Below are positions 2,890 through 61,033 of a stretch of 64,000 nt of DNA, one piece after another. Origin of the DNA: Bacteroidota bacterium (GTDB lineage Bacteria; Bacteroidota; Ignavibacteria; UBA10030; SZUA-254). A program made the translations under genes and the position numbers. The notes under the pieces were generated by a model. That model ran no database searches, had not been told where the DNA came from, and worked only from the letters and a program-made list of their open reading frames with translations. How positions within the stretch are numbered: position 1 is the stretch's first letter; each line of letters opens with the position of its first letter. The DNA is taken from assembly GCA_033854175.1 (NCBI GenBank), contig JAWOKN010000056.1, forward strand, positions 3,736 to 67,735, written 5' to 3'.

Positions 2890-3453
2890 GAACATCTCTT
2901 GATGAAATATTGCGATATTCGGCTATTGCGAGAGGCAGGTCGTGAATGAATACCAAATCATCCGCTCTCCGTGATCCTCCCCGGAAACGATTCCCCTAAT
3001 CCACCGAGCGGTGACATAAGTCACCCGGGAATTCCATGATCTTCCGGCAGGACCCTGACGATGTCGGAGTATCCGACCCTTCGGCCCGCCCGAGATGGAT
3101 GACACTGTTGTGCTCCCCCCACAGCCGCGTCATTCTTCCGGCGACCGGAACAAGAAATCAGACAAATGAGTATAGATCGAGTCGTAGCCGTATGATCCAA
3201 CACCCCGGTTTGCCGGCATGAAGAAAACGGGAAGATCTCTGAAGAACGGTGCACGGGGTGCGGCTCTTCACCCAAACAGGTCTCACACTTGAGAGATGTA
3301 GATCCCGATCCCCCCGGAAACCAATCGCACGGGGCAACAGAATATGGTGCGCAATTTGCTCGAACATATGCCGACAGAACCGCGTCCAGATCGGTCGCGG
3401 GTGCGGTCGAAATACCTCATAACATTGCGACCGGAGAGAGAAGGAGTGCGAGT

Positions 3454-5205
3454 ATGGACAAGAATACATATTTTCGCGGAGGCGCCTGTTTTTTTCTGTT
3501 ACCCATTGTTTTCATCCTTTCCCCAACCCACCTACGAGCCCAATCAGCGCTGCCATGCTACGCATGCCACAGCGGGGAGAACGACAACTGGCTGCTCGGC
3601 CGGCATGCAAACACCCAGAAGGACGTCGCAGGCGAGATCGCTGCTAACTGGCAGGGGCAGACGCCAGATTCCGTCATCCACGGCTCGGCTGCGGAGAACT
3701 GTGTAGCATGTCATTCCCCGCTTGCCGTCACGACAAACGGCGGGATGACCGAAACGCAGGTGATGGGACATTACTTCACCACGACCGGCGGTTTCTACAC
3801 TGATTCCACGCAGGCCGCGGATACGGCCAACTGGCCGCATGTCGGCTGCAACACCTGTCATGACGTTCCGTCGAACCATACGAGCCATGTGTTACCGACG
3901 CTTGCGATTTTCAATTCAACGACGGCACAATACGACTCGATGCCGACGACGGCCACGCTCTGCGGACAGTGTCACGGAACGCTGAGATTCGCGGAAACCG
4001 ACCATCGGATATTCGATGCGTGGAAACTCAGCCGGCACGGGCACAGGGGCCAATCGGACGTCGCGGGCGAGCTCGCCGGAAGCTGGGCGGGCAAAACACC
4101 CAATGACGTCATCAACGGGCCCGATGCGGAAAACTGCGTCGCCTGCCATGCTCCGACGGCGGTCGGTCAAAAATCCGGGGACACAACGGAGGTCATGGTC
4201 TTAAGCCGGTTCTTCACGACCTCGGGCGGGCAATTTACTGCAGGAACGGCCCCTTCCGACACGGCCCACTGGCCTGATGTCAGCTGCACCGCATGTCACG
4301 ACCCACATCGGCCGGACACACTTTCGTACTACAACACATCGACGAGGACGTACCAGGTCATGGCCTCATCAAACCAGTTATGCGGCCAATGCCACGGCAA
4401 CCTCAGGTTTGCCGGTACTGACCATTTAAGCTACAACGTGGAAGAAGCCATCGGTGGAGTCGGTGTGGCGGCCCAGGCGACCATGCCCGGCGCCGGGTGC
4501 ACGGATTGTCACATGCACAAGGGTGAAACGGACGGAACAAACTCACTCATGTACAAGGGGCACAGCTGGTCCATCTTCATCCACGAACCGGACAGCAGCA
4601 CAACCGCCTCCTGCACATCATGTCATGCGGGAATGAACGCCGATTCCTCCAAAACGGTCATCGCCGGCTGGAAGGCCGAATTTGCCTCGACGGACTCACT
4701 CGCCCAGTTACGGGTTGCCTCAGCAGACTCGGCGCTGCAGGGAATAACCGATTCCGTCAGGCAGGCATATCTTGCGGAAGCAAAGAGCAACCTGAGTCTT
4801 GCGGAATCGGACGAAAGCGGCGGATTCCACAACCACAAATACAGTATGGCGCTCCTGAACGACGCCATTGCGAAATCGGCACTCATCACCGGAGTAACGA
4901 TGCCGCAGGCGAATCTCCCGCTGCGGTTCGCGTTACATCAGAACTACCCGAATCCCTTCAATCCATCGACCATCATCCGGTATGAGATCCCCCTTGAAAG
5001 CAGAGTGGCCCTGAAGGTCTACAATGTTCTGGGACAGACCGTGGCAATACTGCGGGAGAACGTAGAATCAGCGGGGTACAAAATTGTAGAATGGACTGCG
5101 GCAGGCATGCCAAGCGGCATATACTTCTGTCAGCTCCAGGCAACGAGCACCTCGCATCCCGTCAAGGCCTACAGTCAGGTCATGAAGATGCTTCTTATTA
5201 GATAA
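3454..5205 (+). CDS. Secreted nonaheme c-type cytochrome with T9SS C-terminal sorting domain
   Basis: The ORF is 3289..5205. The best start is ATG 3454, preceded by GAGAGAGAAGGAG, giving the signal peptide MDKNTYFRGGACFFLLPIVFILSPTHLRAQS. There are nine CxxCH motifs: CYACH, CVACH, CNTCH, CGQCH, CVACH, CTACH, CGQCH, CTDCH, CTSCH. The C-terminus reads NYPNPFNPSTIIRYEIP...GIYFCQLQA...MLLIR. Confidence 0.85.
   Translation: MDKNTYFRGGACFFLLPIVFILSPTHLRAQSALPCYACHSGENDNWLLGRHANTQKDVAGEIAANWQGQTPDSVIHGSAAENCVACHSPLAVTTNGGMTETQVMGHYFTTTGGFYTDSTQAADTANWPHVGCNTCHDVPSNHTSHVLPTLAIFNSTTAQYDSMPTTATLCGQCHGTLRFAETDHRIFDAWKLSRHGHRGQSDVAGELAGSWAGKTPNDVINGPDAENCVACHAPTAVGQKSGDTTEVMVLSRFFTTSGGQFTAGTAPSDTAHWPDVSCTACHDPHRPDTLSYYNTSTRTYQVMASSNQLCGQCHGNLRFAGTDHLSYNVEEAIGGVGVAAQATMPGAGCTDCHMHKGETDGTNSLMYKGHSWSIFIHEPDSSTTASCTSCHAGMNADSSKTVIAGWKAEFASTDSLAQLRVASADSALQGITDSVRQAYLAEAKSNLSLAESDESGGFHNHKYSMALLNDAIAKSALITGVTMPQANLPLRFALHQNYPNPFNPSTIIRYEIPLESRVALKVYNVLGQTVAILRENVESAGYKIVEWTAAGMPSGIYFCQLQATSTSHPVKAYSQVMKMLLIR
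3583..4428 (+). repeat. Internal tandem duplication (two ~140-aa triheme units) inside the cytochrome gene
   Basis: The two units align: DNWLLGRHANTQKDVAGEIAANWQGQTPDSVIHGSAAENCVACH... against DAWKLSRHGHRGQSDVAGELAGSWAGKTPNDVINGPDAENCVACH... Each unit carries CVACH, C(N/T)(T/A)CH and CGQCHG(T/N)LRFA(E/G)TDH. Confidence 0.8.
4921..5202 (+). other. T9SS (Por) C-terminal sorting domain of the cytochrome
   Basis: The sequence LRFALHQNYPNPFNPSTIIRYEIPLESRVALKVYNVLGQTVAILRE...SGIYFCQLQA...MKMLLIR matches the pattern of the Por secretion C-terminal domain. Confidence 0.8.
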
Positions 5206-5287: not shown

Positions 5288-5488
5288 TCAGAGCCGGTCA
5301 GGCTTCACCGGGCAGATCGACCGGTAGAAGCAGCCGGTGCATTCAAGCGCCTGGCGGGGAACCACGGTAGTACACCGGGGGCAACGTTCGACGAAAGGAT
5401 TCGTGACCTCGAGATGGCACTGCGGGCAGCGGCGGATTTCCGTGGCAAGTTTCTCCCGGAGGGCCATTTCCGATGCCTTCAGATCCAT
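5288..5488 (-). CDS. Small (66 aa) Cys-rich zinc-ribbon-like protein coupled to feoB
   Basis: ATG 5488 lies 5 nt after the feoB stop. The protein is MDLKASEMALREKLATEIRRCPQCHLEVTNPFVERCPRCTTVVPRQALECTGCFYRSICPVKPDRL (CPxC...CPxC plus CxxC-x5-C). The longer ORF-track version (to 5617) overlaps feoB and is unlikely. Confidence 0.45.
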   Translation of the reverse strand: MDLKASEMALREKLATEIRRCPQCHLEVTNPFVERCPRCTTVVPRQALECTGCFYRSICPVKPDRL

Positions 5489-5493
5489 ACCCG

Positions 5494-7386
5494 TTACATC
5501 ACAAAATGAGACACAACGCCGCCGACAAAAAAGGCCACGACCCAGGTACCGATCCAGATCACCATCCCCTCCCTCCAGCCCCTCTCTTTGAGCATCACCA
5601 TCAGTGAAGCGATGCACGGGACAAAGAGGGTAATGACGATAAGCGAAACGGCAATCTGCATCGGGTTGAGGGACATATGGTACAGACCGGCCGCGCCGAA
5701 ATCTCGGCGGACGACGCCCATAATAAATGCGACAGCGGCCTCCGGGGGCAGCTGGAGCCAGTGGACGACCAGGGGGGTAAGTTCGTGCTCGAGAAGATCC
5801 AGCAAACCGGTAAGCTGTGCGATACCGACCGCGAGTGCGCCCACAAAAAACCAGCCCGAGGCCTCCTTCATGAAATAATATGTCCGGACGGCGGTTTTCC
5901 TGAAGACATTTTCCATACGGGGCAATCTCATCGGCGGGAGATCCAGAAGAAGCGGGGCTGACGAGCCCGGCAGGACCCGGTCGAGCATCGTTCCGATAAG
6001 GACCAGAACGGCAAGGATCACCAGGACATAGACAGCGATCGGGCCCGGGCCCGCACCCGCAAGGAGCGCGGCGATGACGGCCATCTGGGCGGAGCAGGGG
6101 ATGACAAACTGAAGAATTGCGGTGGCAATCGTCTTCTCGCGTTCAGAGCCGAGGAGGCGTGTAGTAATCGTTGCGGAGGTCACGCAGCCGAAGCCGAGAA
6201 TCAGCGGAATGACGGCCCTTCCGTTCAGGCCGAGGTAGGTCAGAATGCGGTCCACCATCGTCGCCAGCCGCGGAAGGTACCCGCTATCCTCCATCAGAGA
6301 AAGAACGATATAGAACGAAATCACGAGCGGAAGCAGAAGAAAAAGAAGATACGTTGTGGTCATGGTCACAACGCCGTAAGGACCGACAAGGAGTGTATAC
6401 CACCATGATGAGGGAGAAATCAGGGTGGCGGTGATCGTGCGGATCCACGGTTCCCAGAGATTGTTACCGATCCGCTGCTCGGTAAAATTCACAACCAGCT
6501 GGGAAACAAACTTTCCGATAAAGAGATAGGCGACATACAATGCGGCGACAAGGATAGGGATCCCCGTGGAGGGCTTCAGGGCCCAGCGGCCGAGCCTGTC
6601 GGAAAACCGTCTTTTCGGGGAAGTATCCTGCATGACCTGGTTCACGAGATAATTCACCCGGTTGCGGCGGCTGATATAAATCTCATCGCGGAGCGTGCCG
6701 GGATTGACGCCGTGGCGCCGGGCGACAAACTGGTCCCCCTCGAGGACCAGCAGGGCCTCGGATTGTGAGCCGACCATGGAAAGGGTCTCATGGAGGTGGC
6801 CGTGGAGTTCCTCGCGCTGGGTCCCCTCGCGGGCGCCCAGGATGGCCTGATCGAGTTTTTCCAGCGTGACGCCGTTCACGGCGGTAACGGGAATGACACT
6901 GACGCCCAAAAAATTCGAAAGCTTCGGAATGTCGATACTGATATGAAAATCCCTCACCTCGTCCATAAAATTCAGCAGCACCGTAATCTTCTTCCCCATA
7001 TCGATCAGCTGCTGGGTCAGAAACAGGTCCCGTTCGAGGTGTGTCGCATCGACAACATTCAGAACAATATCCGCGTCGAGGATGATATCGCGGGCGGCTT
7101 TCTCCTCATCATTAAACGACGAGACCCCATAGATGCCGGGTGTATCGAAGACATCATAATCGCGGTAGGAACCGCAGACAAGTTCGACGGTAGTCCCCGG
7201 ATAATTCGAGACATCGACATTCATACCGGAAAGGGTATTAAAAATGATCGATTTCCCGACATTGGGATTGCCGGCAAGGACAATTTCCACGCGTCCGGTC
7301 TGTTTGCGGGGGGATCTCAGGCCGGGATGCTGGTGTCTATCCGAATGTTCCAGCGGGGGGCGGGATAAAGGATCATCTGGTGTCAT
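5494..7386 (-). CDS. feoB: Ferrous iron transport protein B
   Basis: N-terminal G-domain (GNPNVGKS, DVSNYPGTTVE, DTPG) followed by a long polytopic membrane domain. It overlaps feoA by 14 nt. Confidence 0.95.
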   Translation of the reverse strand: MTPDDPLSRPPLEHSDRHQHPGLRSPRKQTGRVEIVLAGNPNVGKSIIFNTLSGMNVDVSNYPGTTVELVCGSYRDYDVFDTPGIYGVSSFNDEEKAARDIILDADIVLNVVDATHLERDLFLTQQLIDMGKKITVLLNFMDEVRDFHISIDIPKLSNFLGVSVIPVTAVNGVTLEKLDQAILGAREGTQREELHGHLHETLSMVGSQSEALLVLEGDQFVARRHGVNPGTLRDEIYISRRNRVNYLVNQVMQDTSPKRRFSDRLGRWALKPSTGIPILVAALYVAYLFIGKFVSQLVVNFTEQRIGNNLWEPWIRTITATLISPSSWWYTLLVGPYGVVTMTTTYLLFLLLPLVISFYIVLSLMEDSGYLPRLATMVDRILTYLGLNGRAVIPLILGFGCVTSATITTRLLGSEREKTIATAILQFVIPCSAQMAVIAALLAGAGPGPIAVYVLVILAVLVLIGTMLDRVLPGSSAPLLLDLPPMRLPRMENVFRKTAVRTYYFMKEASGWFFVGALAVGIAQLTGLLDLLEHELTPLVVHWLQLPPEAAVAFIMGVVRRDFGAAGLYHMSLNPMQIAVSLIVITLFVPCIASLMVMLKERGWREGMVIWIGTWVVAFFVGGVVSHFVM

Positions 7387-7609
7387 GGGGAACTTCGTCG
7401 ATGACCGTCACGAGAATACTCCGTGCAAGTGTGTGGCCGATAGCGATCTGCTGTCGGTTTTTCTGGAGAACGATGGTTCCGCCCGGGAGGCGTTCCAGGC
7501 ATTTGACGCGCTGCCCTTCATGGATCCCCAGCCGGACGAACTGGGGGTAATAATCGCCGCCGGGGACCGAATGAATCTTCAACAATTGACCGACCTTGGT
7601 TTCGCTCAT
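7373..7609 (-). CDS. feoA: Ferrous iron transport protein A (FeoA domain)
   Basis: MSETKVGQLLKIHSVPGG...RLGIHEGQRVKCLERLPGGTIVLQKNRQQIAIGHTLARSILV is a FeoA SH3-like domain. The ORF-track start (GTG 7678) coincides with the predicted sigma54 transcription start, so ATG 7609 is preferred. ATG 7645 and 7672 are alternatives. Confidence 0.8.
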   Translation of the reverse strand: MSETKVGQLLKIHSVPGGDYYPQFVRLGIHEGQRVKCLERLPGGTIVLQKNRQQIAIGHTLARSILVTVIDEVPHDTR

Positions 7610-7686
7610 AGAGACGGGTTTCTTGCGGCTCTTCTTGTCAGTCATGATATCATATCGATTAAATTCAAACATACTCACCTATTATC

Positions 7687-7810: not shown

Positions 7811-9139
7811 TCAGAGTAAAGAGAGTGCTTTCTGAAGATCATAAATGATATCCTCGGGATCCTCGAGGCCGATGGAAAGGCGCAGACCGCCCGGATCGAG
7901 TCCCCTTTCGAGCTGTTCGTCGAGCGGGAAAGCCGAATGCGTCATCGAGCTCGGATGTTCGACCAGAGTTCTGATCTGGCCGAGGCTGACTGCAAGGGTA
8001 ATCGTATAGGCATTATGGGCGAGGGCATTAATAAACCTTTCGCCCTGGTCGTGCCGTTCCTTCGGTGTAGAACCGTGGAGGACAAAATAGAGGAGTGTGC
8101 CGGGGGAGAAATTCCCCTTATAGTCGCGCATCTGTTTCCGGGCAAGTTTAAACTGCGGAAACGAGGGTAATCCGGGATACCGGACGAAGGCGACGCGGGG
8201 CTCCTTCCGCAGGAATTCAGCCACCCGGTAGGTGCTCTCGATCTGCTGGCGGATACGGGTTGAAAGACTCGGGAGGCCATAGACCAGTATAGGCCAGGCG
8301 CTCTTAGCTGACAGTGTGCCGCCGAAATCCTTCCGGTAAAGGAGGAGCCGGTCATAGGACCAGCGGGGACCGACAACGACGCCCCCCATATCGGTGCCGA
8401 AACCGCAGATCCCCTTTGTAAGAGAATCGACGACAAAATCGGCACCCAATGTCAGGGGACGCTGGCAGAAGGGGGTGGCGAAGGTATTATCGATGACCAG
8501 ATAGATCTTCCTTTCGGGGGATCTCCGGCGGTTCGCGCGGCGGATAATGCCGGCAATCGCGCCGATATCGATAAGATCCAGAGTCGGGTTCACGGGGGAC
8601 TCAAAATAGACGACGCGGGTGCGGTCGGTGATCTTCCGTTCAAGGTTTGCGGGTTTTCTCAGATCGACATAGGCCGTAGTGATCGTATACCGCGGGTACC
8701 AGTTAAGGAGAAGCGAATAGGTACAGCCGTACAAAACGGGGTGGGCGATAATTTCATCGGCGGTGCCGGTAAGTGTGCCGAGGACGGCCGAGATGGCTGC
8801 CATACCGGTCGCAAAAGTCACGGCCACCTCGCCCTGTTCGGCGTCGGCGAGGTTTTCCTCGAGGATCTCCTTATTCGGTTCGCCGAGGCGGTCATAGATA
8901 TAGATCGGGGCGCACGATGCAATCTTTCTGATTCCGTCGTGGTGGGCGAACTCTGCGAACCCCTGAGCGCCGCGCCGGGCGGTATCGAGGCGGAACGTCG
9001 AGGAGGAGGAAAGGGGCGGGACGACATGGTGGTTATAGTCCCACTTCTTGCTCGAGGCCTTTCCATAAATAAGGCGCGTCTGCATTGAATACGGGCGCGC
9101 CTGATGTTTTTTACCTTTCTTCGGGCGTAAGGATTTCAT
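7811..9139 (-). CDS. Cys/Met-metabolism PLP-dependent enzyme (methionine gamma-lyase / cystathionine gamma-synthase / O-acylhomoserine sulfhydrylase family)
   Basis: Family motifs are present: FESPVNPTL, VVDSLTKGICGFGTDMGG (S-x-T-K PLP lysine) and RLSIGLEDPEDII. An ATGA start/stop overlap links it to the upstream gene. Confidence 0.85.
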   Translation of the reverse strand: MKSLRPKKGKKHQARPYSMQTRLIYGKASSKKWDYNHHVVPPLSSSSTFRLDTARRGAQGFAEFAHHDGIRKIASCAPIYIYDRLGEPNKEILEENLADAEQGEVAVTFATGMAAISAVLGTLTGTADEIIAHPVLYGCTYSLLLNWYPRYTITTAYVDLRKPANLERKITDRTRVVYFESPVNPTLDLIDIGAIAGIIRRANRRRSPERKIYLVIDNTFATPFCQRPLTLGADFVVDSLTKGICGFGTDMGGVVVGPRWSYDRLLLYRKDFGGTLSAKSAWPILVYGLPSLSTRIRQQIESTYRVAEFLRKEPRVAFVRYPGLPSFPQFKLARKQMRDYKGNFSPGTLLYFVLHGSTPKERHDQGERFINALAHNAYTITLAVSLGQIRTLVEHPSSMTHSAFPLDEQLERGLDPGGLRLSIGLEDPEDIIYDLQKALSLL

Positions 9140-10125
9140 TTTTTCGTCTCATGTTGTTCCGGAACGGGATCTGACAGAAGCAGTTCCCTGACCGTAGGGC
9201 AGGAGAGAACCTCCGATCGGAGTTTGGCCAGAACCTCCGAGTTATACCAGATCTCCCTGAAATTATAATTATTCTCGCGGAGTTCGCCGCACGGGGTGCC
9301 GAGTGAGGCGCAGGGCTGGACCGAGCCTGTAGGCGAGATGAAGATAAAGCTCCTTCCGGCGAGGCACCAGTGGGTCCACTCGACGCGGACCTTATGATTC
9401 TCCTGTTCCCCGTTTCCCTCACCCGGTGCCGCAACATCATGGAGGCCGTATTTGATGCACTGGGGAGAAAAATACATCCCCTTCGGGCTCAGGCGTTTAA
9501 TCTGGGCGATCTTCGATATGAACTGGCCGATAAACTGGTCGGTATCGGCGTCCTGATCCTTCTCCGGAAGGAGGGCGGCGTCCCACGCCAGGTGGCAGTA
9601 GAGACCGTTTGCGGACTTCTGGAGTGCAAAGTCATGTTCAAAGGCCAGCTGGCGGGTATCGGGCTTATGGATACTGCTCCCGAGGTGGATTTCGTAGCCC
9701 GCCTTCTTGAGCCGCCGGATGCTGTTTTCCAGCGCCTGAAACTGCGTCGATTGCTTGAAACGGGTATCCATATCCTCGGTGATCGCGCCATCCAGGAGAA
9801 GGCGGAAAACCTTGGGGCCGAAGATGACATACTTCTCGATCATTTCGTCGGTCAGCTCCTGGGGTGCGACCTCGATAATCATCTTCAGGCCGAGGGCGAA
9901 CCCGTATTCGACAATCTGAAAAAGATCGGGGCGTTCGGCGACCTTTCTGCCGGTGAGGACGATAATCGGTTTTGCGATGCGGGCGATGCTGTCGATGATC
10001 AGGAGGCATTCATGGGTAGTAAGGACATCGGGCTCTCCGGGTGTTTTTTTCCTTGAAAGCTGCCAGACGATCATCCTGGGGAAAAAATCCTCTTCTTCGC
10101 GGTGGCTGTGTGCTGGACCCTGCAT
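9136..10125 (-). CDS. Radical-SAM/SPASM-like protein lacking the CX3CX2C cluster motif (probable pseudoenzyme or non-radical homologue)
   Basis: It has a TIM-barrel-like core (IIVLTGRKVAERPDLFQIVEYGFALGLKMIIE...RLLLDGAI...ENSIRRLKKAGYEIHLGSSI). The C-terminus is SPASM/twitch-like (CLAGRSFIFISPTGSVQPCASLGTPCGELRENNYNFREIWYNSEVLAKLR...C). The N-terminus MIVWQLSRKKTPGEPDVLTTHE has no cysteine where CxxxCxxC belongs, and GGEP is replaced by TGRK. Confidence 0.6.
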   Translation of the reverse strand: MQGPAHSHREEEDFFPRMIVWQLSRKKTPGEPDVLTTHECLLIIDSIARIAKPIIVLTGRKVAERPDLFQIVEYGFALGLKMIIEVAPQELTDEMIEKYVIFGPKVFRLLLDGAITEDMDTRFKQSTQFQALENSIRRLKKAGYEIHLGSSIHKPDTRQLAFEHDFALQKSANGLYCHLAWDAALLPEKDQDADTDQFIGQFISKIAQIKRLSPKGMYFSPQCIKYGLHDVAAPGEGNGEQENHKVRVEWTHWCLAGRSFIFISPTGSVQPCASLGTPCGELRENNYNFREIWYNSEVLAKLRSEVLSCPTVRELLLSDPVPEQHETKK

Positions 10126-10146
10126 AAAAAATCTCCTAAGAACGAG

Positions 10147-10533
10147 TTATGATGAACGTGATCTGGAACGGCGTGAAGCATGATGAACCGCTTCGATAGT
10201 TTCGACGACAAGGGGAAAATAGCGTTCGAGGGCGCACTCCTCGTCCTCGCGCAGCTGGCAATGCCCCGAGGCGGACTGGAACGTGCATTCGGTGCAGACG
10301 ATCATATGCAGTTCGCGGAGATACCTCTCCATCGAATCCGCCTGCAGGTTTCCGACGATCTGGACGATGCGGGGAAGCTGGGTCTGGAGGGGGCAGTCGA
10401 ACTCGGCATCCAGCCGGCAGTTCCCGTGCCCGTCGCCGTCGAGGCAGACCCTGCAGACCTTCTCGCGGACGGCCTGCCAGTAGGCGTGTGCATCCTGGCG
10501 GGGGCGTTTTTCAGACCGCAATTTTCTTGCCAT
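10147..10533 (-). CDS. Cys-rich protein, paralogue B (two C-x2-C-x8-C-x7-C modules)
   Basis: VCRVCLDGDGHGNCRLDAEFDCPLQTQLPRIVQIV ... VCTECTFQSASGHCQLREDEECALERYFPLVVETIEAV. It is a paralogue of 10511..10852 and overlaps it by 23 nt. Confidence 0.6.
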   Translation of the reverse strand: MARKLRSEKRPRQDAHAYWQAVREKVCRVCLDGDGHGNCRLDAEFDCPLQTQLPRIVQIVGNLQADSMERYLRELHMIVCTECTFQSASGHCQLREDEECALERYFPLVVETIEAVHHASRRSRSRSS

Positions 10534-10852
10534 TATTCTTCACCGTCTCGATAATTTCGACAACAAGGGGGAAGTAGCGGTCGAGGGCGCACTCCAGTTT
10601 ACTCCTCTTCCCGCAGAAAAGGTCGGGGGTCTGGAAATCGCAGTTTGCGCAGACAGTTTTCCTCAGGGCCGTGACATAGTCCCGGATATCGGGGGAATCG
10701 ACGGCAGTGACCGACTGGACAATCTCGGGTAAAAAGTGTTTCAGGGGACATTCCTCACCGGCGGGGAGGCGGCAAAGGCCCGTGCCGTCGCCGTCCACGC
10801 ACTTCCTGCAAATCCGGTTTTGGATCACCGGCCACAACTGATCGAGTTTCAT
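10511..10852 (-). CDS. Cys-rich protein, paralogue A (two C-x2-C-x8-C-x7-C modules)
   Basis: ATG 10852 is preceded by AAGGTGGTG. The protein is MKLDQLWPVIQNRICRKCVDGDGTGLCRLPAGEECPLKHFLPEIVQSV...VCANCDFQTPDLFCGKRSKLECALDRYFPLVVEIIETV. The ORF-track start 10951 is an upstream extension. Confidence 0.65.
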   Translation of the reverse strand: MKLDQLWPVIQNRICRKCVDGDGTGLCRLPAGEECPLKHFLPEIVQSVTAVDSPDIRDYVTALRKTVCANCDFQTPDLFCGKRSKLECALDRYFPLVVEIIETVKNNGKKIAV

Positions 10853-10901
10853 ACGCACCACCTTTCGCAAAAACGTGATATAAGAACAATAACAGTGTGA
10901 A

Positions 10902-11171
10902 TTATGATTGTACATCGTCAAAACGGGCCCTGATCTGATCGAGGACCTCAAACTTGCCCCGCAGGGTTTCCTTAGTCTTCTCGAGCAGTTCGATCGACTT
11001 CTTCTTATTAATGATCAGCTCATTGAGGATAGCCTTGACATCGGGGTAGGTGCAAGCGTCGCGATAAAAGGCATACTGGAGGATCGCCTCCTTTTCCGTC
11101 GTACTTGCAAATTCCAGGGCATTGCACAACTCCCTGCATGATTGAACACAGTTCGGTTTTGTTTGCGGCAT
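10902..11171 (-). CDS. Small (89 aa) helical protein, function unknown
   Basis: ATG 11171 is preceded by AGGAGGATCAC and lies 10 nt after the gamma-subunit stop. The protein is MPQTKPNCVQSCRELCNALEFASTTEKEAILQYAFYRDACTYPDVKAILNELIINKKK..., a helical sequence with an E-x-x-A-x-x-x-Y ferritin-like flavour. No family assigned. Confidence 0.5.
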   Translation of the reverse strand: MPQTKPNCVQSCRELCNALEFASTTEKEAILQYAFYRDACTYPDVKAILNELIINKKKSIELLEKTKETLRGKFEVLDQIRARFDDVQS

Positions 11172-11181
11172 AGTGATCCTC

Positions 11182-11739
11182 CTAGACAATAGGTGTAGCT
11201 GCTTCGATAACGAGTTTTTCACCGCAGGAGAGGGCGCGCCGGTTGACGTCGAGGAGATGGTGATACCGTTCCGGCAGGACGCTCTCGAGCGCCTTCATCA
11301 CGGAAGAAAGCTGGACGACCTGGCAGACATTCAAAAACGCGCCAAGCATGACCATATTCTTCACCTTGAGGTTCTTCAGCTTAATAGCCTCCTTCTCGAT
11401 ATCAACCGGAAGGACGGTGATATCGGTGCGGGTGGGGGGGATGATGACATTGGAGCTGTCATAAATCAGGATGCCGTTCGGTTTGATGGCCTTCTCGAAC
11501 TTGTCCACGGACGGCTGGTTCATCGCGACGACGGCATCATAGCGGGTAACGATCGGTGAACTGATCTCCTGGTTCGAAATGATGACGATACAATTGGCTG
11601 TGCCGCCCCGCATCTCGGGGCCATACGACGGCATCCATGAGACATGTTTTCCTTCAATCATCCCTGCATAGGTGAGGGTCATCCCCATCGAGAGAACCCC
11701 CTGCCCGCCAAAACCTGAGAACAAAATCTCGTGTGTCAT
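11182..11739 (-). CDS. 2-oxoacid:ferredoxin oxidoreductase, gamma subunit
   Basis: MTHEILFSGFGGQGVLSMGMTLTYAGMIEGKHVSWMPSYGPEMRGGTANC is the typical OFOR gamma N-terminus. Confidence 0.9.
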   Translation of the reverse strand: MTHEILFSGFGGQGVLSMGMTLTYAGMIEGKHVSWMPSYGPEMRGGTANCIVIISNQEISSPIVTRYDAVVAMNQPSVDKFEKAIKPNGILIYDSSNVIIPPTRTDITVLPVDIEKEAIKLKNLKVKNMVMLGAFLNVCQVVQLSSVMKALESVLPERYHHLLDVNRRALSCGEKLVIEAATPIV

Positions 11740-11790
11740 GTTCTGTTATCCTTTACGCTGTCAAAATGAATTACCCTGACCGATCGTTGC

Positions 11791-12576
11791 TTATTTATGT
11801 TCGACGACTTTTCCGTCAACCTTGAGATCCCCGAGAGGGAAAACCGGGAGCATATTCTGTTCAAGCCATTTATTCGCCTCGACGGGGGTCATCTTCCAGC
11901 CCGAGGGGCAATTCGAGACGACCTCGATGAGGCAATAGCCCTTCTTTTCCTTCTGTGCCTGGAGGGCCTTCGTGATGGATTTCTTCAGGTGCCGGATCGC
12001 ATTGGGTGTATGCACGGCCTGGCGGGTGACATAATAGGCGCCGGGGAGCATTGCGATAAGGTCTGTGACTTTTATCGGAAACCCGCAGTTGGCGACATCC
12101 CTCCCCTCGGGGGAGGTTGTGGTTTTCATGCCGAGGATAGTGGTGGGGGCCATCTGGCCTCCGGTCATGCCATAGATCGCGTTATTGATAAAAATCACGA
12201 GAATATTCTCGCCGCGGTTCGCTGCATGGATCGTCTCATTGGTGCCTATTGCCGCCAGGTCGCCGTCGCCCTGGTACGAGAAGACGATCTTATCGGGCCA
12301 CATCCGTTTAATGCCGGTGGCGACTGCGGAGGCGCGGCCGTGGGCCGCCTCCTGCATATCGACATCCAGGTAATGATAGGCGAAGACGGAGCACCCGACG
12401 GGAGCCACGCCGATCGTCTCGCTCTGGATGCCCATCTCCTGGACAACCTCCATCAGCACCTTATGGACGGCGCCGTGGCCGCAGCCCGGGCAATAGTGCA
12501 TCGGTGTATCGGTCAGAGTTGCCGGTTTCGACCAAACGATTTCCATACCTTCGATACTTGTCTGAACCTGGTTCAT
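11791..12576 (-). CDS. 2-oxoacid:ferredoxin oxidoreductase, beta (TPP-binding) subunit
   Basis: ATG 12576 lies 4 nt after the alpha-subunit stop. Motifs: HYCPGCGHG, GDGDLAAIGTNE, NNAIYGMTGGQ. The ORF-track start 12702 overlaps the alpha gene. Confidence 0.9.
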   Translation of the reverse strand: MNQVQTSIEGMEIVWSKPATLTDTPMHYCPGCGHGAVHKVLMEVVQEMGIQSETIGVAPVGCSVFAYHYLDVDMQEAAHGRASAVATGIKRMWPDKIVFSYQGDGDLAAIGTNETIHAANRGENILVIFINNAIYGMTGGQMAPTTILGMKTTTSPEGRDVANCGFPIKVTDLIAMLPGAYYVTRQAVHTPNAIRHLKKSITKALQAQKEKKGYCLIEVVSNCPSGWKMTPVEANKWLEQNMLPVFPLGDLKVDGKVVEHK

Positions 12577-12580
12577 CGCA

Positions 12581-13723
12581 TTATCTTTCAATGATTTCGG
12601 ATAATTCGGATTTCGCGCCCTCGCGCTGGTTTTCCCCCTTTGGAGCCGGTGACTGCGCGGCGGGTGTCTGGATGAGGTGAAGCATCTGCTCGAGGATCTC
12701 ATCCGGGGGAGGAATCATACCGCCCAGGCGTCCGTAAAAATTCACCGTAGTCTTACCTTCGACGGCCAGCCGGACATCCTCGACCATCTGTCCCGCATTG
12801 AGTTCAATAACCAGGATATTCCGCACCTTCGGAGCTAGTTCCCGGAGGATCTGGTAGGGATACGGAAACAGAGTAATCGGGCGGACGAGGCCGGCCTTGA
12901 TGCCGCGGTGGCGTGCCAGTTCGACGGCGCGGGCGCAGATCCTTGCGGCAAGTCCGTAGGCGACGAGGATCATATCGGCGTCGTCGCACGACGTAAGCTG
13001 ACAGCGGACCTCACTCTCGCGGACCTTCCGGTACTTCTCCTGGAGCTGTTTATTGATCCCCTCCATCTTTTCAGGCTGGATAAACAATGACGTGACGATA
13101 TTCCGTTCGCGGTCGGGGGTTTTGCCGGTGGTAGCCCACGGTTTATCGACCCTGTGCTTATTCGGGTCATACTCCCTGAAGGTGACAGCCTCCATCATCT
13201 GGCCGAGGGCACCGTCGGCGAGGATCATGACGGGATTGCGGTATTTGTCGGCGAGGTCGAAGCCGTCGAAGACAAAATCGGCCATCTCCTGGACGCTGTT
13301 GGGGGCAAGGACGATAAGGTGATAATCGCCGTGTCCGCCCCCCTTGGTCGCCTGGAAATAATCCCCCTGTGAGGGCTGGATCGTGCCGAGGCCCGGGCCG
13401 CCGCGGTTGACGTTGACCACGAGGCAGGGCAGCTGAGCCGATGCGATATAGGAAAGGCCCTCCTGCATGAGGCTGATACCGGGGCTTGAGGACGAGGTCA
13501 TTGCCCGTTTGCCTGCGCCTGCGGCGCCGTAGACCATATTGATGGCCGCAAGCTCGCTTTCCGACTGCATGACGACCATACCCCGTTTCCTCCCCTCCTC
13601 GGCCAGATACTCGATGACCTCAGACTGGGGGGTAATGGGATAACCGAAATACCCGTCGCAACCCGCCCGGATGGCGGCTTCCGCGAGGGCTTCGTTGCCC
13701 TTCATCAATTTCGCTTCGCTCAT
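12581..13723 (-). CDS. 2-oxoacid:ferredoxin oxidoreductase, alpha subunit
   Basis: MSEAKLMKGNEALAEAAIRAGCDGYFGYPITPQSEV... is the typical OFOR alpha N-terminus. An ATGA overlap links it to the delta gene. Confidence 0.9.
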   Translation of the reverse strand: MSEAKLMKGNEALAEAAIRAGCDGYFGYPITPQSEVIEYLAEEGRKRGMVVMQSESELAAINMVYGAAGAGKRAMTSSSSPGISLMQEGLSYIASAQLPCLVVNVNRGGPGLGTIQPSQGDYFQATKGGGHGDYHLIVLAPNSVQEMADFVFDGFDLADKYRNPVMILADGALGQMMEAVTFREYDPNKHRVDKPWATTGKTPDRERNIVTSLFIQPEKMEGINKQLQEKYRKVRESEVRCQLTSCDDADMILVAYGLAARICARAVELARHRGIKAGLVRPITLFPYPYQILRELAPKVRNILVIELNAGQMVEDVRLAVEGKTTVNFYGRLGGMIPPPDEILEQMLHLIQTPAAQSPAPKGENQREGAKSELSEIIER

Positions 13724-14046
13724 ATATCTATTCCTCCTTGGGGTTGTTCATCGAGGACGACCCTGACATTGCTTTTCACGTTGGAGATAACGGCGACCGG
13801 TTCCTTCTTCGCGGCGCTCTTGCCGTCCTTGCGGGAGCGGTAGACGGTTATGACGGCATCGGGGCAGACAAGGGCGCAGTTGACGCAGCCGGTGCAGTTA
13901 TCCTGGACAAGCACGGCATAGTGATATCCTTTTGCGTTGATTTCCTTCGAAAGCGCCAGACTCTCCTGCGGGCACGAGTCGATACAGATCTCGCACCCCT
14001 TGCAGGTTTCCACCTGAATCTGGACAGTTCCATGGACTGTAGCCAT
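13720..14046 (-). CDS. 2-oxoacid:ferredoxin oxidoreductase, delta (2x[4Fe-4S] ferredoxin) subunit
   Basis: Two cluster motifs are present: CKGCEICIDSCP and CTGCVNCALVCP. Confidence 0.85.
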   Translation of the reverse strand: MATVHGTVQIQVETCKGCEICIDSCPQESLALSKEINAKGYHYAVLVQDNCTGCVNCALVCPDAVITVYRSRKDGKSAAKKEPVAVISNVKSNVRVVLDEQPQGGIDI

Positions 14047-59791: not shown

Positions 59792-61033
59792 CTAGAGAGT
59801 GCTATTCCCGTTCCCCTTCGGGACGCACTGAACCCAGCATCCGAAATTCTTCAATTCCTCAAGGCGGCACGACCAGACAATCTCATTATTCCAGACGGTG
59901 ACATCGGGGCAGCCGTCGCACATATTCTGGCCGCCGTTCGGCATGAAGTCAATAGGCTGGATAATCATGACAGACTGATAGTGGAGACCGCGGAAGAGGA
60001 TTGCAGGACTGGTGAATAATTTCCTGAAAAACCGGCCGGTAATCCTCCGCACGCCCTCATCAAACGGGGAAAGAAGCATCATCGCGCGTCCCCGCCGGGT
60101 ATCCTTCGGTCCGGAATAGGCCAGATAGCGCCCTTTGATCAAATGATGTCCGGTCTGGATAATCTCCATAAACTTCGGGCCGACATAGCCGAGGATGCCG
60201 TCCTTCTTCGTACCGACGCGGCCCGTCAGCAGCCACTTGAACGAATCGGGTTTCTCGGTCCCGTTAAGATACGCGCAGGGGTCGAATTCCGGAAACTTCT
60301 CCCGGATGGTTTTCACCACCTCAGGAGACTGAAGCGCGATATTCCGGGCGGAAGTTTCGGTATAGACCAGTTTCTGCACATCGATTTTCTTGCCCCCGGC
60401 ATACCAGTCAAACGGAAGGGCAGGGATAGCGGCGCGGTAGAGGATAAAGACGATGACATTGACGATATCGATATGCTCCTCGGCCCACTTCACCATTTCC
60501 GGAACATACTGGAGGGTATCCTCATACACGGTCGAATTAAACGCGCAGGAGAAACCGCCCACCTCGGCGAGCATTTCGGCAAGCTGCAGGCGGAATTCAT
60601 TGAGCTCGAGTTCATTCTTATTCTTCCATTTCGGGCGACCCTGTTTGCTGTCGATATGGAAGGTAAAGCCGAACGCCCCGGCGCGTTTCAGATCCAGCAG
60701 GAGCTCCTTCGTCAGCAGCTGACCGTTTGTATTCACAATCGGCTTCATCCCCATCTCGGCGACCATCTCGACGATATCGAGGATCTGGGGATGCATCAGG
60801 GGATCGCCGCCGGCGATCGAAACACCGTCCGCGGTACGGAGGCGGCGGAACGTCTTCAGCTCCTCGCGGACCTCATTGAGCGTCTTGTGGCTGTTCGGTA
60901 CATTCTCCCGGTAGCACCCGTCGCACGCAAGATTGCATGCGGATGTCGGTTCCAGCCAAACGATGGCGTTATCCGGCAGGGTCCAGGGCAAACGGTACAG
61001 GTACCGGTGATCGATAACCGATGGTTCAGTCAT
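59792..61033 (-). CDS. Radical SAM enzyme with long Cys-rich C-terminal extension, function unknown
   Basis: PTSACNLACDGCYREN (CX3CX2C), SIAGGDPLMHP, NTNGQLL. The C-terminal ~200 aa end with C-x2-C-x13-C-x9-C-x3-C (NMCDGCPDVTVWNNEIVWSCRLEELKNFGCWVQC). Confidence 0.85.
   Translation of the reverse strand: MTEPSVIDHRYLYRLPWTLPDNAIVWLEPTSACNLACDGCYRENVPNSHKTLNEVREELKTFRRLRTADGVSIAGGDPLMHPQILDIVEMVAEMGMKPIVNTNGQLLTKELLLDLKRAGAFGFTFHIDSKQGRPKWKNKNELELNEFRLQLAEMLAEVGGFSCAFNSTVYEDTLQYVPEMVKWAEEHIDIVNVIVFILYRAAIPALPFDWYAGGKKIDVQKLVYTETSARNIALQSPEVVKTIREKFPEFDPCAYLNGTEKPDSFKWLLTGRVGTKKDGILGYVGPKFMEIIQTGHHLIKGRYLAYSGPKDTRRGRAMMLLSPFDEGVRRITGRFFRKLFTSPAILFRGLHYQSVMIIQPIDFMPNGGQNMCDGCPDVTVWNNEIVWSCRLEELKNFGCWVQCVPKGNGNSTL

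Follow-up and report, generated by a model that had tools for sequence, protein, structure and literature searches.

The 64,000-nucleotide window analyzed here (Bacteroidota bacterium assembly GCA_033854175.1, contig JAWOKN010000056.1) carries on its minus strand, at 9136..10125, a gene for a 329-amino-acid protein, designated pseudo-AhbD, with the radical S-adenosylmethionine (SAM)/SPASM fold and without a radical SAM cluster, a SAM site or the motif for auxiliary cluster II (AuxII). Its stop codon overlaps the start of a gene at 7811..9139 (minus strand) that encodes a 442-amino-acid, methionine-gamma-lyase-like Cys/Met pyridoxal 5′-phosphate (PLP) enzyme (Pfam Cys_Met_Meta_PP, E = 7.5e-91); the shared ATGA, read directly from the sequence at 9136..9139 on the minus strand, indicates translational coupling. 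A previous sequence-only reading of this stretch had located pseudo-AhbD at 9136-10125 and reported the ATGA overlap with the downstream PLP gene, both of which stand, while the strand needed correction to minus. At the other end of the gene, a Shine-Dalgarno-like AGGAG (10133..10137, minus strand, also read from the sequence) lies 7 nucleotides 5′ of the ATG at 10125 and backs the annotated start, suggesting that no N-terminal segment is missing from pseudo-AhbD. The gene upstream has its stop codon at 10147, leaving a gap of only 21 nucleotides, and translation of the two alternative frames of the pseudo-AhbD open reading frame (ORF) reveals no Cys motif in either.

The best NCBIfam match of pseudo-AhbD is AhbD (TIGR04545, E = 8.4e-29), with a score of 101.1 bits that does not reach the equivalog cut-off of 500 bits and an alignment that begins at profile position 27, just past the site of the CX3CX2C motif; NirJ2 is also matched (E = 3.3e-22). 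Pfam SPASM (PF13186) matches residues 254-304 above its gathering score (E = 6e-5, 23.6 versus 21.5), over profile positions 1-54 of 67, and the TIGR04085 SPASM model (12.5 bits versus a cut-off of 27) and Pfam Radical_SAM (PF04055, 18.2 versus 29.5 bits) remain below their respective thresholds. An AlphaFold2 model based on 33 homologues, with a predicted local distance difference test score (pLDDT) of 86 and a predicted template modeling score (pTM) of 0.84, consists of six beta/alpha units followed by beta-hairpins and helices, that is, the partial (beta/alpha)6 TIM barrel that characterizes the radical SAM superfamily. Foldseek searches with this model returned SkfB at the top and also matched BtrN and MoaA, and a PDB sequence search with the family profile gave nothing at E ≤ 0.01. 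The assignment of a radical SAM/SPASM fold is secure, with the profile searches placing the protein near AhbD/NirJ2 and SPASM and not in an unrelated fold. Family members are currently labeled in public databases as “radical SAM protein” or “MoaA/NifB/PqqE/SkfB family radical SAM enzyme”.

Pseudo-AhbD shares with AhbD and its NirJ/NirJ2 relatives the barrel, the W-x-L at the start of beta-1, the LGLK motif, the G-x4-C hairpin, the first four SPASM Cys at unchanged spacing, and three residues (W, S and R) of the following helix. In contrast to AhbD, it lacks CX3CX2C, GGEP and CX2CX5CX2C...C, does not lie beside ahbA/B/C or hem genes, and has a PLP lyase as its partner. The nearest canonical relatives of the family are AhbD-type proteins, one of which (P0175) has a long C-terminal extension that resembles siroheme decarboxylase (AhbA/B) by eye, not by profile match. 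A positive control for a siroheme-dependent haem pathway cluster was provided by a Chitinispirillum metagenome-assembled genome (MAG) of the Fibrobacteres-Chlorobi-Bacteroidetes (FCB) group, in which locus L033 (8682-12356) has a genuine AhbD gene flanked by genes for an AhbC-like radical SAM protein and a HemL-like aminomutase (neighbors identified by eye); this locus suggests a possible origin of the pseudo-AhbD ancestor. Neither ahbA/B nor ahbC was found within ~10 kb of pseudo-AhbD in the window or in ~60 related loci. The derivation from a radical SAM/SPASM protein without a SAM-cleaving cluster, as proposed in the sequence-only reading, is upheld, but the maturase ancestry is not: both the NCBIfam match and the nearest relatives point to a haem-pathway enzyme of the AhbD/NirJ type as the predicted ancestor, and away from a peptide maturase.

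Alignment with the L033 AhbD and 62 canonical relatives shows how much of the ancestral active site has disappeared. Residues 21-39 (WQLSRKKTPGEPDVLTTHE; 10009..10065, minus strand) form a Cys-free linker of variable length at the CX3CX2C site, where genuine AhbD has W-E-L-T-R-x-C-x3-C-x2-C, and residues 1-39 contain no Cys at all. Residues 58-62 (9940..9954, minus strand) read TGRKV in place of the SAM-binding TGGEP; these positions vary among family members, the canonical relatives having G in 100%, E in 95% and P in 95%. The missing CX3CX2C and the replacement of GGEP by TGRK had already been recognized from the sequence, and all strings then quoted (WQLSRKKTPGEPDVLTTHE, TGRK, SPTGSVQPC and GELRENNYNFREIWYNS) are present. 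A motif comparison of 41 family members with the 62 canonical relatives indicated family-wide loss of the three radical-SAM Cys, the G-E-P of GGEP, S110, the H-D-x-x-R motif, Q147, N149, T151 and N156, as well as F178, P182 and G184; CX2CX5CX2C is down to one of its four Cys, and the last Cys is missing too. Retained are W21, G59, R65, D67, G103, C223, C254, G257, G267 and C272, together with G280, W293, S296, R303, C309 and R313. The CX3CX2C motif is absent from all 41 aligned family sequences, including 33 of 33 in alignment A1, where the length of the linker varies. The C-terminal AuxII motif CX2CX5CX2CX17-35C is conserved in all AhbDs (PMC10452713); only C309 is left of it in the pseudo-AhbD family, the other Cys being deleted or replaced.

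The family is sharply delimited by these losses. A word-indexed homologue search returned 34 clusters (43-100% identity) from Ignavibacteriota and Bacteroidota MAGs, and an exhaustive profile search of 1.84 billion representatives returned ~16 full-length clusters at 511-321 bits, plus fragments, after which scores dropped to ≤149 bits. All representatives above this gap lack CX3CX2C, GGEP and CX2CX5CX2C; full-length matches just under it are almost all of the canonical AhbD type and carry these motifs, the exceptions being the AhbD-like protein P0177 and a few matches that begin or end inside the motifs. The pseudo-AhbD ORF is intact in >50 independent assemblies, and alignment A1 contains 33 invariant columns. 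As judged from these comparisons, the loss of the radical SAM site is ancient and conserved, and no artefact. A frameshift, an upstream exon or a wrongly assigned start, which the sequence-only reading had raised as possible artefacts, are ruled out by the 21-nucleotide gap, the Cys-free alternative frames, the Shine-Dalgarno-like sequence and the family-wide loss; no restoring motif was found, and the same loss is seen in all 41 aligned orthologues. Because the CX3CX2C loop, GGEP and other SAM-site residues are gone, radical SAM chemistry should be impossible for pseudo-AhbD: the protein is predicted to be unable to bind the SAM-cleaving cluster, almost certainly cannot bind SAM, and would be expected to give a negative result for reductive SAM cleavage to the 5′-deoxyadenosyl radical. 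That pseudo-AhbD is both derived from AhbD and incapable of radical SAM chemistry is considered very likely.

One clade (L024, L027, L028, L030 and L031) has a C-x-C remnant (e.g., WEIACSCLE) at the former radical-SAM site, a 7-residue insertion exactly at the GGEP position, and Gln for His at position 147. Non-canonical cluster motifs are known elsewhere in the superfamily, and this remnant, together with the common occurrence of C40, could be taken to favor a still-active radical SAM enzyme whose cluster is held by non-canonical Cys, supplied in part by a Cys-rich neighboring protein. Such an enzyme is nevertheless very improbable, given that the loop is Cys-free in the protein of the window, C40 and C177 are present in only 30/41 and 27/41 members, GGEP and other SAM-site residues have been lost as well, and the Cys-rich neighbor is absent from many loci. 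Even less credence is given to a decaying, functionless remnant or an assembly or annotation artefact; while pseudo-AhbD is the fastest-evolving gene of its operon and has lost its catalytic motifs, its ORF is preserved across independent assemblies, A1 has its invariant columns and four invariant Cys, translational coupling is conserved, the fold is confidently predicted, and the neighboring frames hide no missing motif. Pseudogene or artefact status thus appears effectively refuted by conservation.

Pseudo-radical-SAM/SPASM proteins as such have already been recognized, but the pseudo-AhbD family is undescribed, and a literature search found no paper on it. The TIGR04347 “pseudo-SAM/SPASM protein” likewise has a radical SAM/SPASM fold without the canonical cluster motif and is weakly matched (E = 0.001); pseudo-AhbD is no member of it (18.4 versus 525 bits), representing an independent loss in another lineage and genomic context. 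P0177 (L038:5419-6471) is AhbD-like and has both the CX3CX2C loop and GGEP replaced (WELAGPMESEVLTTSE and TGKELL, respectively). Unlike pseudo-AhbD, it keeps the full SPASM motif (CKQCEYRNVCGGC...C), scores 143 bits against the pseudo-AhbD family profile, and has no PLP lyase among its neighbors, which encode a ferredoxin, a GltD-like oxidoreductase, two squalene/phytoene synthases and an amine oxidase (an HpnCDE-like set). The radical-SAM site would therefore appear to have been lost more than once among AhbD-like scaffolds, with P0177 as a separate lineage, although its features alternatively suggest an intermediate form.

What remains of the SPASM domain is a twitch-like remnant at residues 223-313 (9187..9459, minus strand), which includes the Pfam SPASM match at 254-304 and is defined by invariant C223, C254, C272 and C309 and by G267-x4-C272. 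These four Cys are present in 41/41 members with the spacing C223-x30-C254-x17-C272-x36-C309, while C40 (30/41), C177 (27/41) and C279 are only partly conserved. The C-x18-C-x6-C pattern described in the sequence-only reading was correct for x6 and incorrect for x18, the actual arrangement being C254-x17-C272-x6-C279-x29-C309, and it had missed the invariant C223 upstream. The seven or eight Cys by which a SPASM domain binds two clusters (including CX2CX5CX3C) are not found, only the first four motif Cys being present; the remnant has a deletion of the CX2CX5 segment and carries Thr or Val at the fourth Cys of the motif. In turn, pseudo-AhbD has the three or four conserved Cys of a twitch domain, including the C...G-x4-C hairpin, which would suffice for one cluster.

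In Methanosarcina barkeri AhbD, the SPASM motif is CX20-33CX17CX36-37CX2CX5CX2CX17-35C, with C223, C256, C274 and C324 as ligands of auxiliary cluster I (AuxI) and C312, C315, C321 and C342 as ligands of AuxII, and a variant with AuxI alone still carries a [4Fe-4S] cluster (PMC10452713). The Cys spacing of pseudo-AhbD is that of the first half of this motif, so three AuxI ligands are strictly retained. Most likely, C223, C254, C272 and C309 bind a [4Fe-4S] cluster where AuxI used to be, and a single cluster of the AuxI type is regarded as probable. The option of a protein using only an auxiliary cluster, put forward in the sequence-only reading, fits the four Cys found in every member at AuxI-type spacing, where only AuxI-type ligands seem to survive. 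The engineered M. barkeri “AhbD AuxI” variant resembles pseudo-AhbD in combining the AhbD scaffold with an AuxI site only, and is stable with one [4Fe-4S] cluster (PMC10452713); it differs in keeping C324 and the whole polypeptide, whereas in pseudo-AhbD segments are deleted, position 324 is Thr or Val, and C309 lies three residues earlier. SkfB, BtrN and MoaA, with their twitch domains, also have a single auxiliary cluster site derived from a truncated SPASM domain, but they still have their radical SAM cluster and are catalytically active.

The barrel, too, has been remodeled. Polar residues E85, R108, R158, D165, H178 and K210 are invariant in the family, where canonical AhbDs have Ala, Ser or Phe, and in the model secondary structure E85 lies in beta-3 (81-86), R108 in beta-4 (107-110) and H178 in beta-6 (174-179). 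The gain of invariant residues suggests a new binding site, not mere decay. It would also suit a neofunctionalized, non-radical enzyme, in which the remodeled barrel, with family-specific polar residues on strands beta-3, beta-4 and beta-6, and the remaining cluster act on 2-oxobutyrate, its enamine/imine precursor or methanethiol, as the tight coupling to the lyase might imply. However, no known enzyme family is matched, pseudo-AhbD evolves much faster than the true enzymes that surround it, and the L024 clade has the substitutions H147 → Q, R122 → G and D112 → N, making such an enzyme quite unlikely.

The PLP partner is better conserved. Among solved structures it is closest to methionine gamma-lyases (6egr, E = 7e-78), and its catalytic motifs align with those of Citrobacter freundii 6egr (SLTKG/SVTKY, YIYDRLG/YIYTRLG, LYGCTY/IYGCTH and SSMTHS/ASMTHS), with conservation of the PLP lysine, the Tyr and Arg of Y-x-R, the Y-G-C with the lyase-typical Cys, K-D, and S-x-T-H-S. 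The equivalog cut-offs are missed (TIGR01328, 304.8 versus 549.7; NF005695, 312 versus 666), and the enzyme belongs to a distinct subfamily with a Lys-rich N-terminal extension and several insertions. Identity among orthologues is 65-87% for the PLP enzyme versus 35-79% for pseudo-AhbD. Methionine gamma-lyase yields 2-oxobutyrate, a plausible substrate of 2-oxoacid:ferredoxin oxidoreductase (OFOR). Judged by its protein families, the operon, which includes alanine dehydrogenase, malic enzyme and CoA-transferase, fits amino-acid and 2-oxoacid fermentation, in which the PLP enzyme would appear to be a methionine gamma-lyase with a catabolic role.

Genomic context was assessed in seven loci from gene-caller tables and, by tblastn, in 28 genome and 30 metagenome loci. 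Pseudo-AhbD is directly followed by the PLP gene in 24/27 genome loci and 22/23 informative metagenome loci, a total of 46 of ~50 informative loci from Ignavibacteriota and Bacteroidota. The intergenic gap is estimated at ≤55 nucleotides in 37 of 38 non-redundant loci, and an ATGA or GTGA that would permit overlap occurs at the stop codon in 21 of the 38; these estimates are heuristic, with the PLP start misplaced in some loci, and do not include the window itself. Searching outward from PLP orthologues, pseudo-AhbD was found upstream in two of three loci. The tight coupling to a Cys/Met PLP gene, as noted in the sequence-only reading, is real and is the most conserved feature of the neighborhood. 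Across 12 genomes, the mean pairwise distance of pseudo-AhbD is 0.89, versus 0.21-0.36 for the neighboring enzymes, corresponding to evolution 2.5-4 times faster.

In the main clade, the pair lies in a co-directional block that begins with alanine dehydrogenase, CoA-transferase, malic enzyme, a thioredoxin-like protein, a four-subunit OFOR and a small ferritin-like protein, and continues with zero to two Cys-rich proteins, pseudo-AhbD and the PLP lyase; FeoA, FeoB and a small Cys-rich protein close the block, in some loci after an intervening true radical SAM gene. In the L024-L031 clade, the pair directly follows alanine dehydrogenase and CoA-transferase, and genes for OFOR, Feo and Cys-rich proteins are lacking; the pair of a third clade is followed by genes for a haem-c beta-propeller protein and a multihaem cytochrome. 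Two loci of the third clade (L005 and L012) have no PLP gene; since their sister loci L011 and L047 have the same context with the PLP gene, these absences look like secondary deletions. The conserved unit is the two-gene pair, to which OFOR, Feo and Cys-rich proteins are frequently, but not definingly, linked. The attachment to an OFOR operon and to Cys-module proteins that the sequence-only reading had suggested is therefore frequent but not universal, the L024-L031 and haem-c clades being organized differently, and the sub-cluster for cofactor or sulfur handling that it proposed is best regarded as hypothetical. The possibility that pseudo-AhbD is a maturase for OFOR was ruled out, as the pair is found without OFOR in two clades.

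In the window, the genes around the pair lie on the minus strand. The four OFOR subunits (delta, alpha, beta and gamma) are encoded at 11182..14046, as identified from ORFs and from Pfam POR and TPP matches on orthologues. A small ferritin/rubrerythrin-like protein (10902..11222), with weak Rubrerythrin and EncB-like matches, lies between OFOR gamma and the Cys-rich proteins and is syntenic after OFOR gamma in most OFOR-carrying loci; its called GTG start overlaps OFOR gamma by 41 nucleotides and is probably too far upstream. Next are two Cys-rich paralogues, one called at 146 amino acids (10511..10951), whose true start is probably a Met at ~10852, and a two-repeat protein of 128 amino acids with eight invariant Cys (10147..10533), to which the former is ~44-47% identical and which is a frequent, not universal, upstream neighbor of pseudo-AhbD. 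Both paralogues have two C-x2-C-x8-C-x7-C repeats and a RYFPLVVE helix that is conserved. Neither belongs to a Pfam or NCBIfam family, and both seem to be confined to the pseudo-AhbD operon. For the 128-amino-acid protein, a word-indexed homologue search gave only three proteins, and the AlphaFold2 model is helical and of low confidence (pLDDT 63.5). Many loci lack Cys-rich proteins. Downstream of the PLP gene are FeoA (7373-7678) and FeoB (5494-7386), together spanning 5494..7678 and assigned from Pfam FeoA and FeoB matches on orthologues and from synteny. A small Cys-rich ORF (CPQC...CPRC...CTGC; 5288-5617, minus strand) is located just after FeoB, partly overlapping it, and recurs at 33-65% identity in most related loci; it matches no family except for a sub-threshold DUF7575 hit and may encode a Feo accessory protein. 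An Rfam scan of the window and three loci identified no riboswitch or other RNA family, and a promoter and terminator scan gave no informative signal within the operon, the sigma-70 consensus probably not being applicable to this lineage.

Two further genes of the window lie outside this block. On the opposite strand, 3289-5205 (plus) encodes a 638-amino-acid protein with about nine CxxCH motifs and a C-terminal region that, by appearance, may be a type IX secretion sorting signal. At 59816-61033 (minus strand), a 406-amino-acid protein with Fer4_12 and Radical_SAM domains and an intact CX3CX2C is a genuine radical SAM protein, weakly similar to NirJ2, Tes and HpnH and matching no characterized family. 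Its orthologues (70-94% identity) occur directly after the PLP gene or before pseudo-AhbD in at least eight related genomes, and here the gene is ~50 kb from the pair, beside genes that, from their context, are putatively for butyrate kinase and phosphotransbutyrylase. It was not adopted as a member of the module, as the linkage is not constant.

The order of the main-clade operon, from the thioredoxin-like protein through OFOR, the ferritin-like protein, the 8-Cys proteins, pseudo-AhbD and the PLP lyase to FeoA, FeoB and the small Cys-rich protein, could also be read as an iron-sulfur assembly line. Pseudo-AhbD would then be a scaffold or sulfide acceptor that, with its four invariant Cys and the help of the Cys-rich proteins, combines lyase-derived sulfide with FeoAB-imported Fe(II) into clusters for OFOR; cysteine is also desulfhydrated by enzymes of the methionine-gamma-lyase type. 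This role seems decidedly unlikely, since the pair of the L024-L031 clade occurs without OFOR, Feo or Cys-rich proteins, the latter are missing from many other loci, lyases of this type give free sulfide and no protein persulfide, and a buried four-Cys site of the AuxI type favors a stable over a transient cluster.

The ancestry of pseudo-AhbD brings haem into consideration, in that a tetrapyrrole-binding barrel may have been kept in a chaperone or sensor for haem or Fe-coproporphyrin. Its closest canonical relatives are AhbD haem synthases, and Fe-coproporphyrin binding by AhbD does not depend on the auxiliary clusters (PMC10452713). HemW offers a precedent as a radical SAM homologue of the haem pathway in which the biosynthetic reaction is gone and a role in binding or transfer has been acquired, with haem taken from bacterioferritin (PMC10114771); in the window a ferritin-like gene is found upstream, and one clade has the module beside a haem-c beta-propeller protein and a multihaem cytochrome. 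HemW is, however, of the HemN/CgdH lineage, and it keeps the [4Fe-4S] radical SAM cluster and binds SAM, whereas pseudo-AhbD has no such cluster. In addition, the majority of the barrel positions that canonical AhbDs conserve have been substituted, there are no haem-biosynthesis genes nearby as there are at L033, the constant neighbor is a methionine lyase and not a haem protein, and haem delivery to c-type cytochromes is periplasmic. On these grounds, a haem-binding role is judged unlikely.

The preferred interpretation is that pseudo-AhbD is a descendant of AhbD that has kept the (beta/alpha)6 barrel and, of the SPASM domain, the first half, has lost the radical-SAM and AuxII sites, and would hold one [4Fe-4S] cluster with four Cys at the AuxI site. 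It would act not as a haem synthase but alongside the lyase, as a non-radical iron-sulfur protein that is its accessory subunit or a partner in its pathway, and would either sense redox or thiol state to modulate the lyase or handle its thiol product (methanethiol or sulfide). As a whole, a single-cluster pseudo-AhbD working with the lyase is given a probability of roughly 0.5. Several observations weigh against it. In the alignment, C309 falls on the third CX2CX5CX2C Cys, which binds AuxII in M. barkeri, and the position of the AuxI ligand C324 is Thr or Val in the family, so that a four-Cys AuxI site requires C309 as a substitute; situated three residues before the C324 position, at the start of the same predicted helix, C309 could serve as such a ligand. 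A PLP orthologue with 67% identity has no pseudo-AhbD neighbor (L037), and in L009 (4528-5511) and L050 (324-1211) pseudo-AhbD is followed directly by FeoA, the PLP gene being absent from the operon; the pair can thus be broken while pseudo-AhbD is kept. Rate covariation between pseudo-AhbD and the PLP enzyme (residual r = 0.21; 12 genomes, 7 operon proteins) is not above that of other pairs. Gene order is the sole link between pseudo-AhbD and the lyase. Finally, to our knowledge, methionine gamma-lyases elsewhere act on their own. On balance, the pairing still argues, by somewhat more than even odds, for pseudo-AhbD as a functional partner of the lyase, while a specifically redox-related or thiol-handling role is doubtful. 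Ignavibacteriota and related Bacteroidota MAGs share this two-gene module, most often in an alanine/malate/2-oxoacid fermentation operon with Feo iron import. As a tentative extension, the methionine or cysteine gamma-lyase of Ignavibacteriota might be an obligate two-protein system with an AhbD-derived iron-sulfur pseudo-enzyme, whose remaining AuxI-type cluster and remodeled barrel would gate the lyase according to redox or thiol state, or capture the thiol.

The radical SAM label given to members of the pseudo-AhbD family is wrong, a systematic mis-annotation that a family model of their own would put right. The family also represents a natural experiment in which the AhbD scaffold survives with the AuxI-side Cys only, the reverse of true AhbDs, where AuxII is the constant cluster (PMC10452713); as such, it could help to show what AuxI contributes alone. 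The strictness of the pairing suggests a component unknown from model organisms in the methionine or cysteine breakdown of these widespread anaerobes of soil, sediment and groundwater, with a possible bearing on methanethiol and sulfide production. If true, the obligate lyase/iron-sulfur pair would give this class of enzymes its first described iron-sulfur partner, and would show a naturally “AuxI-only” radical SAM scaffold turned to a new function.

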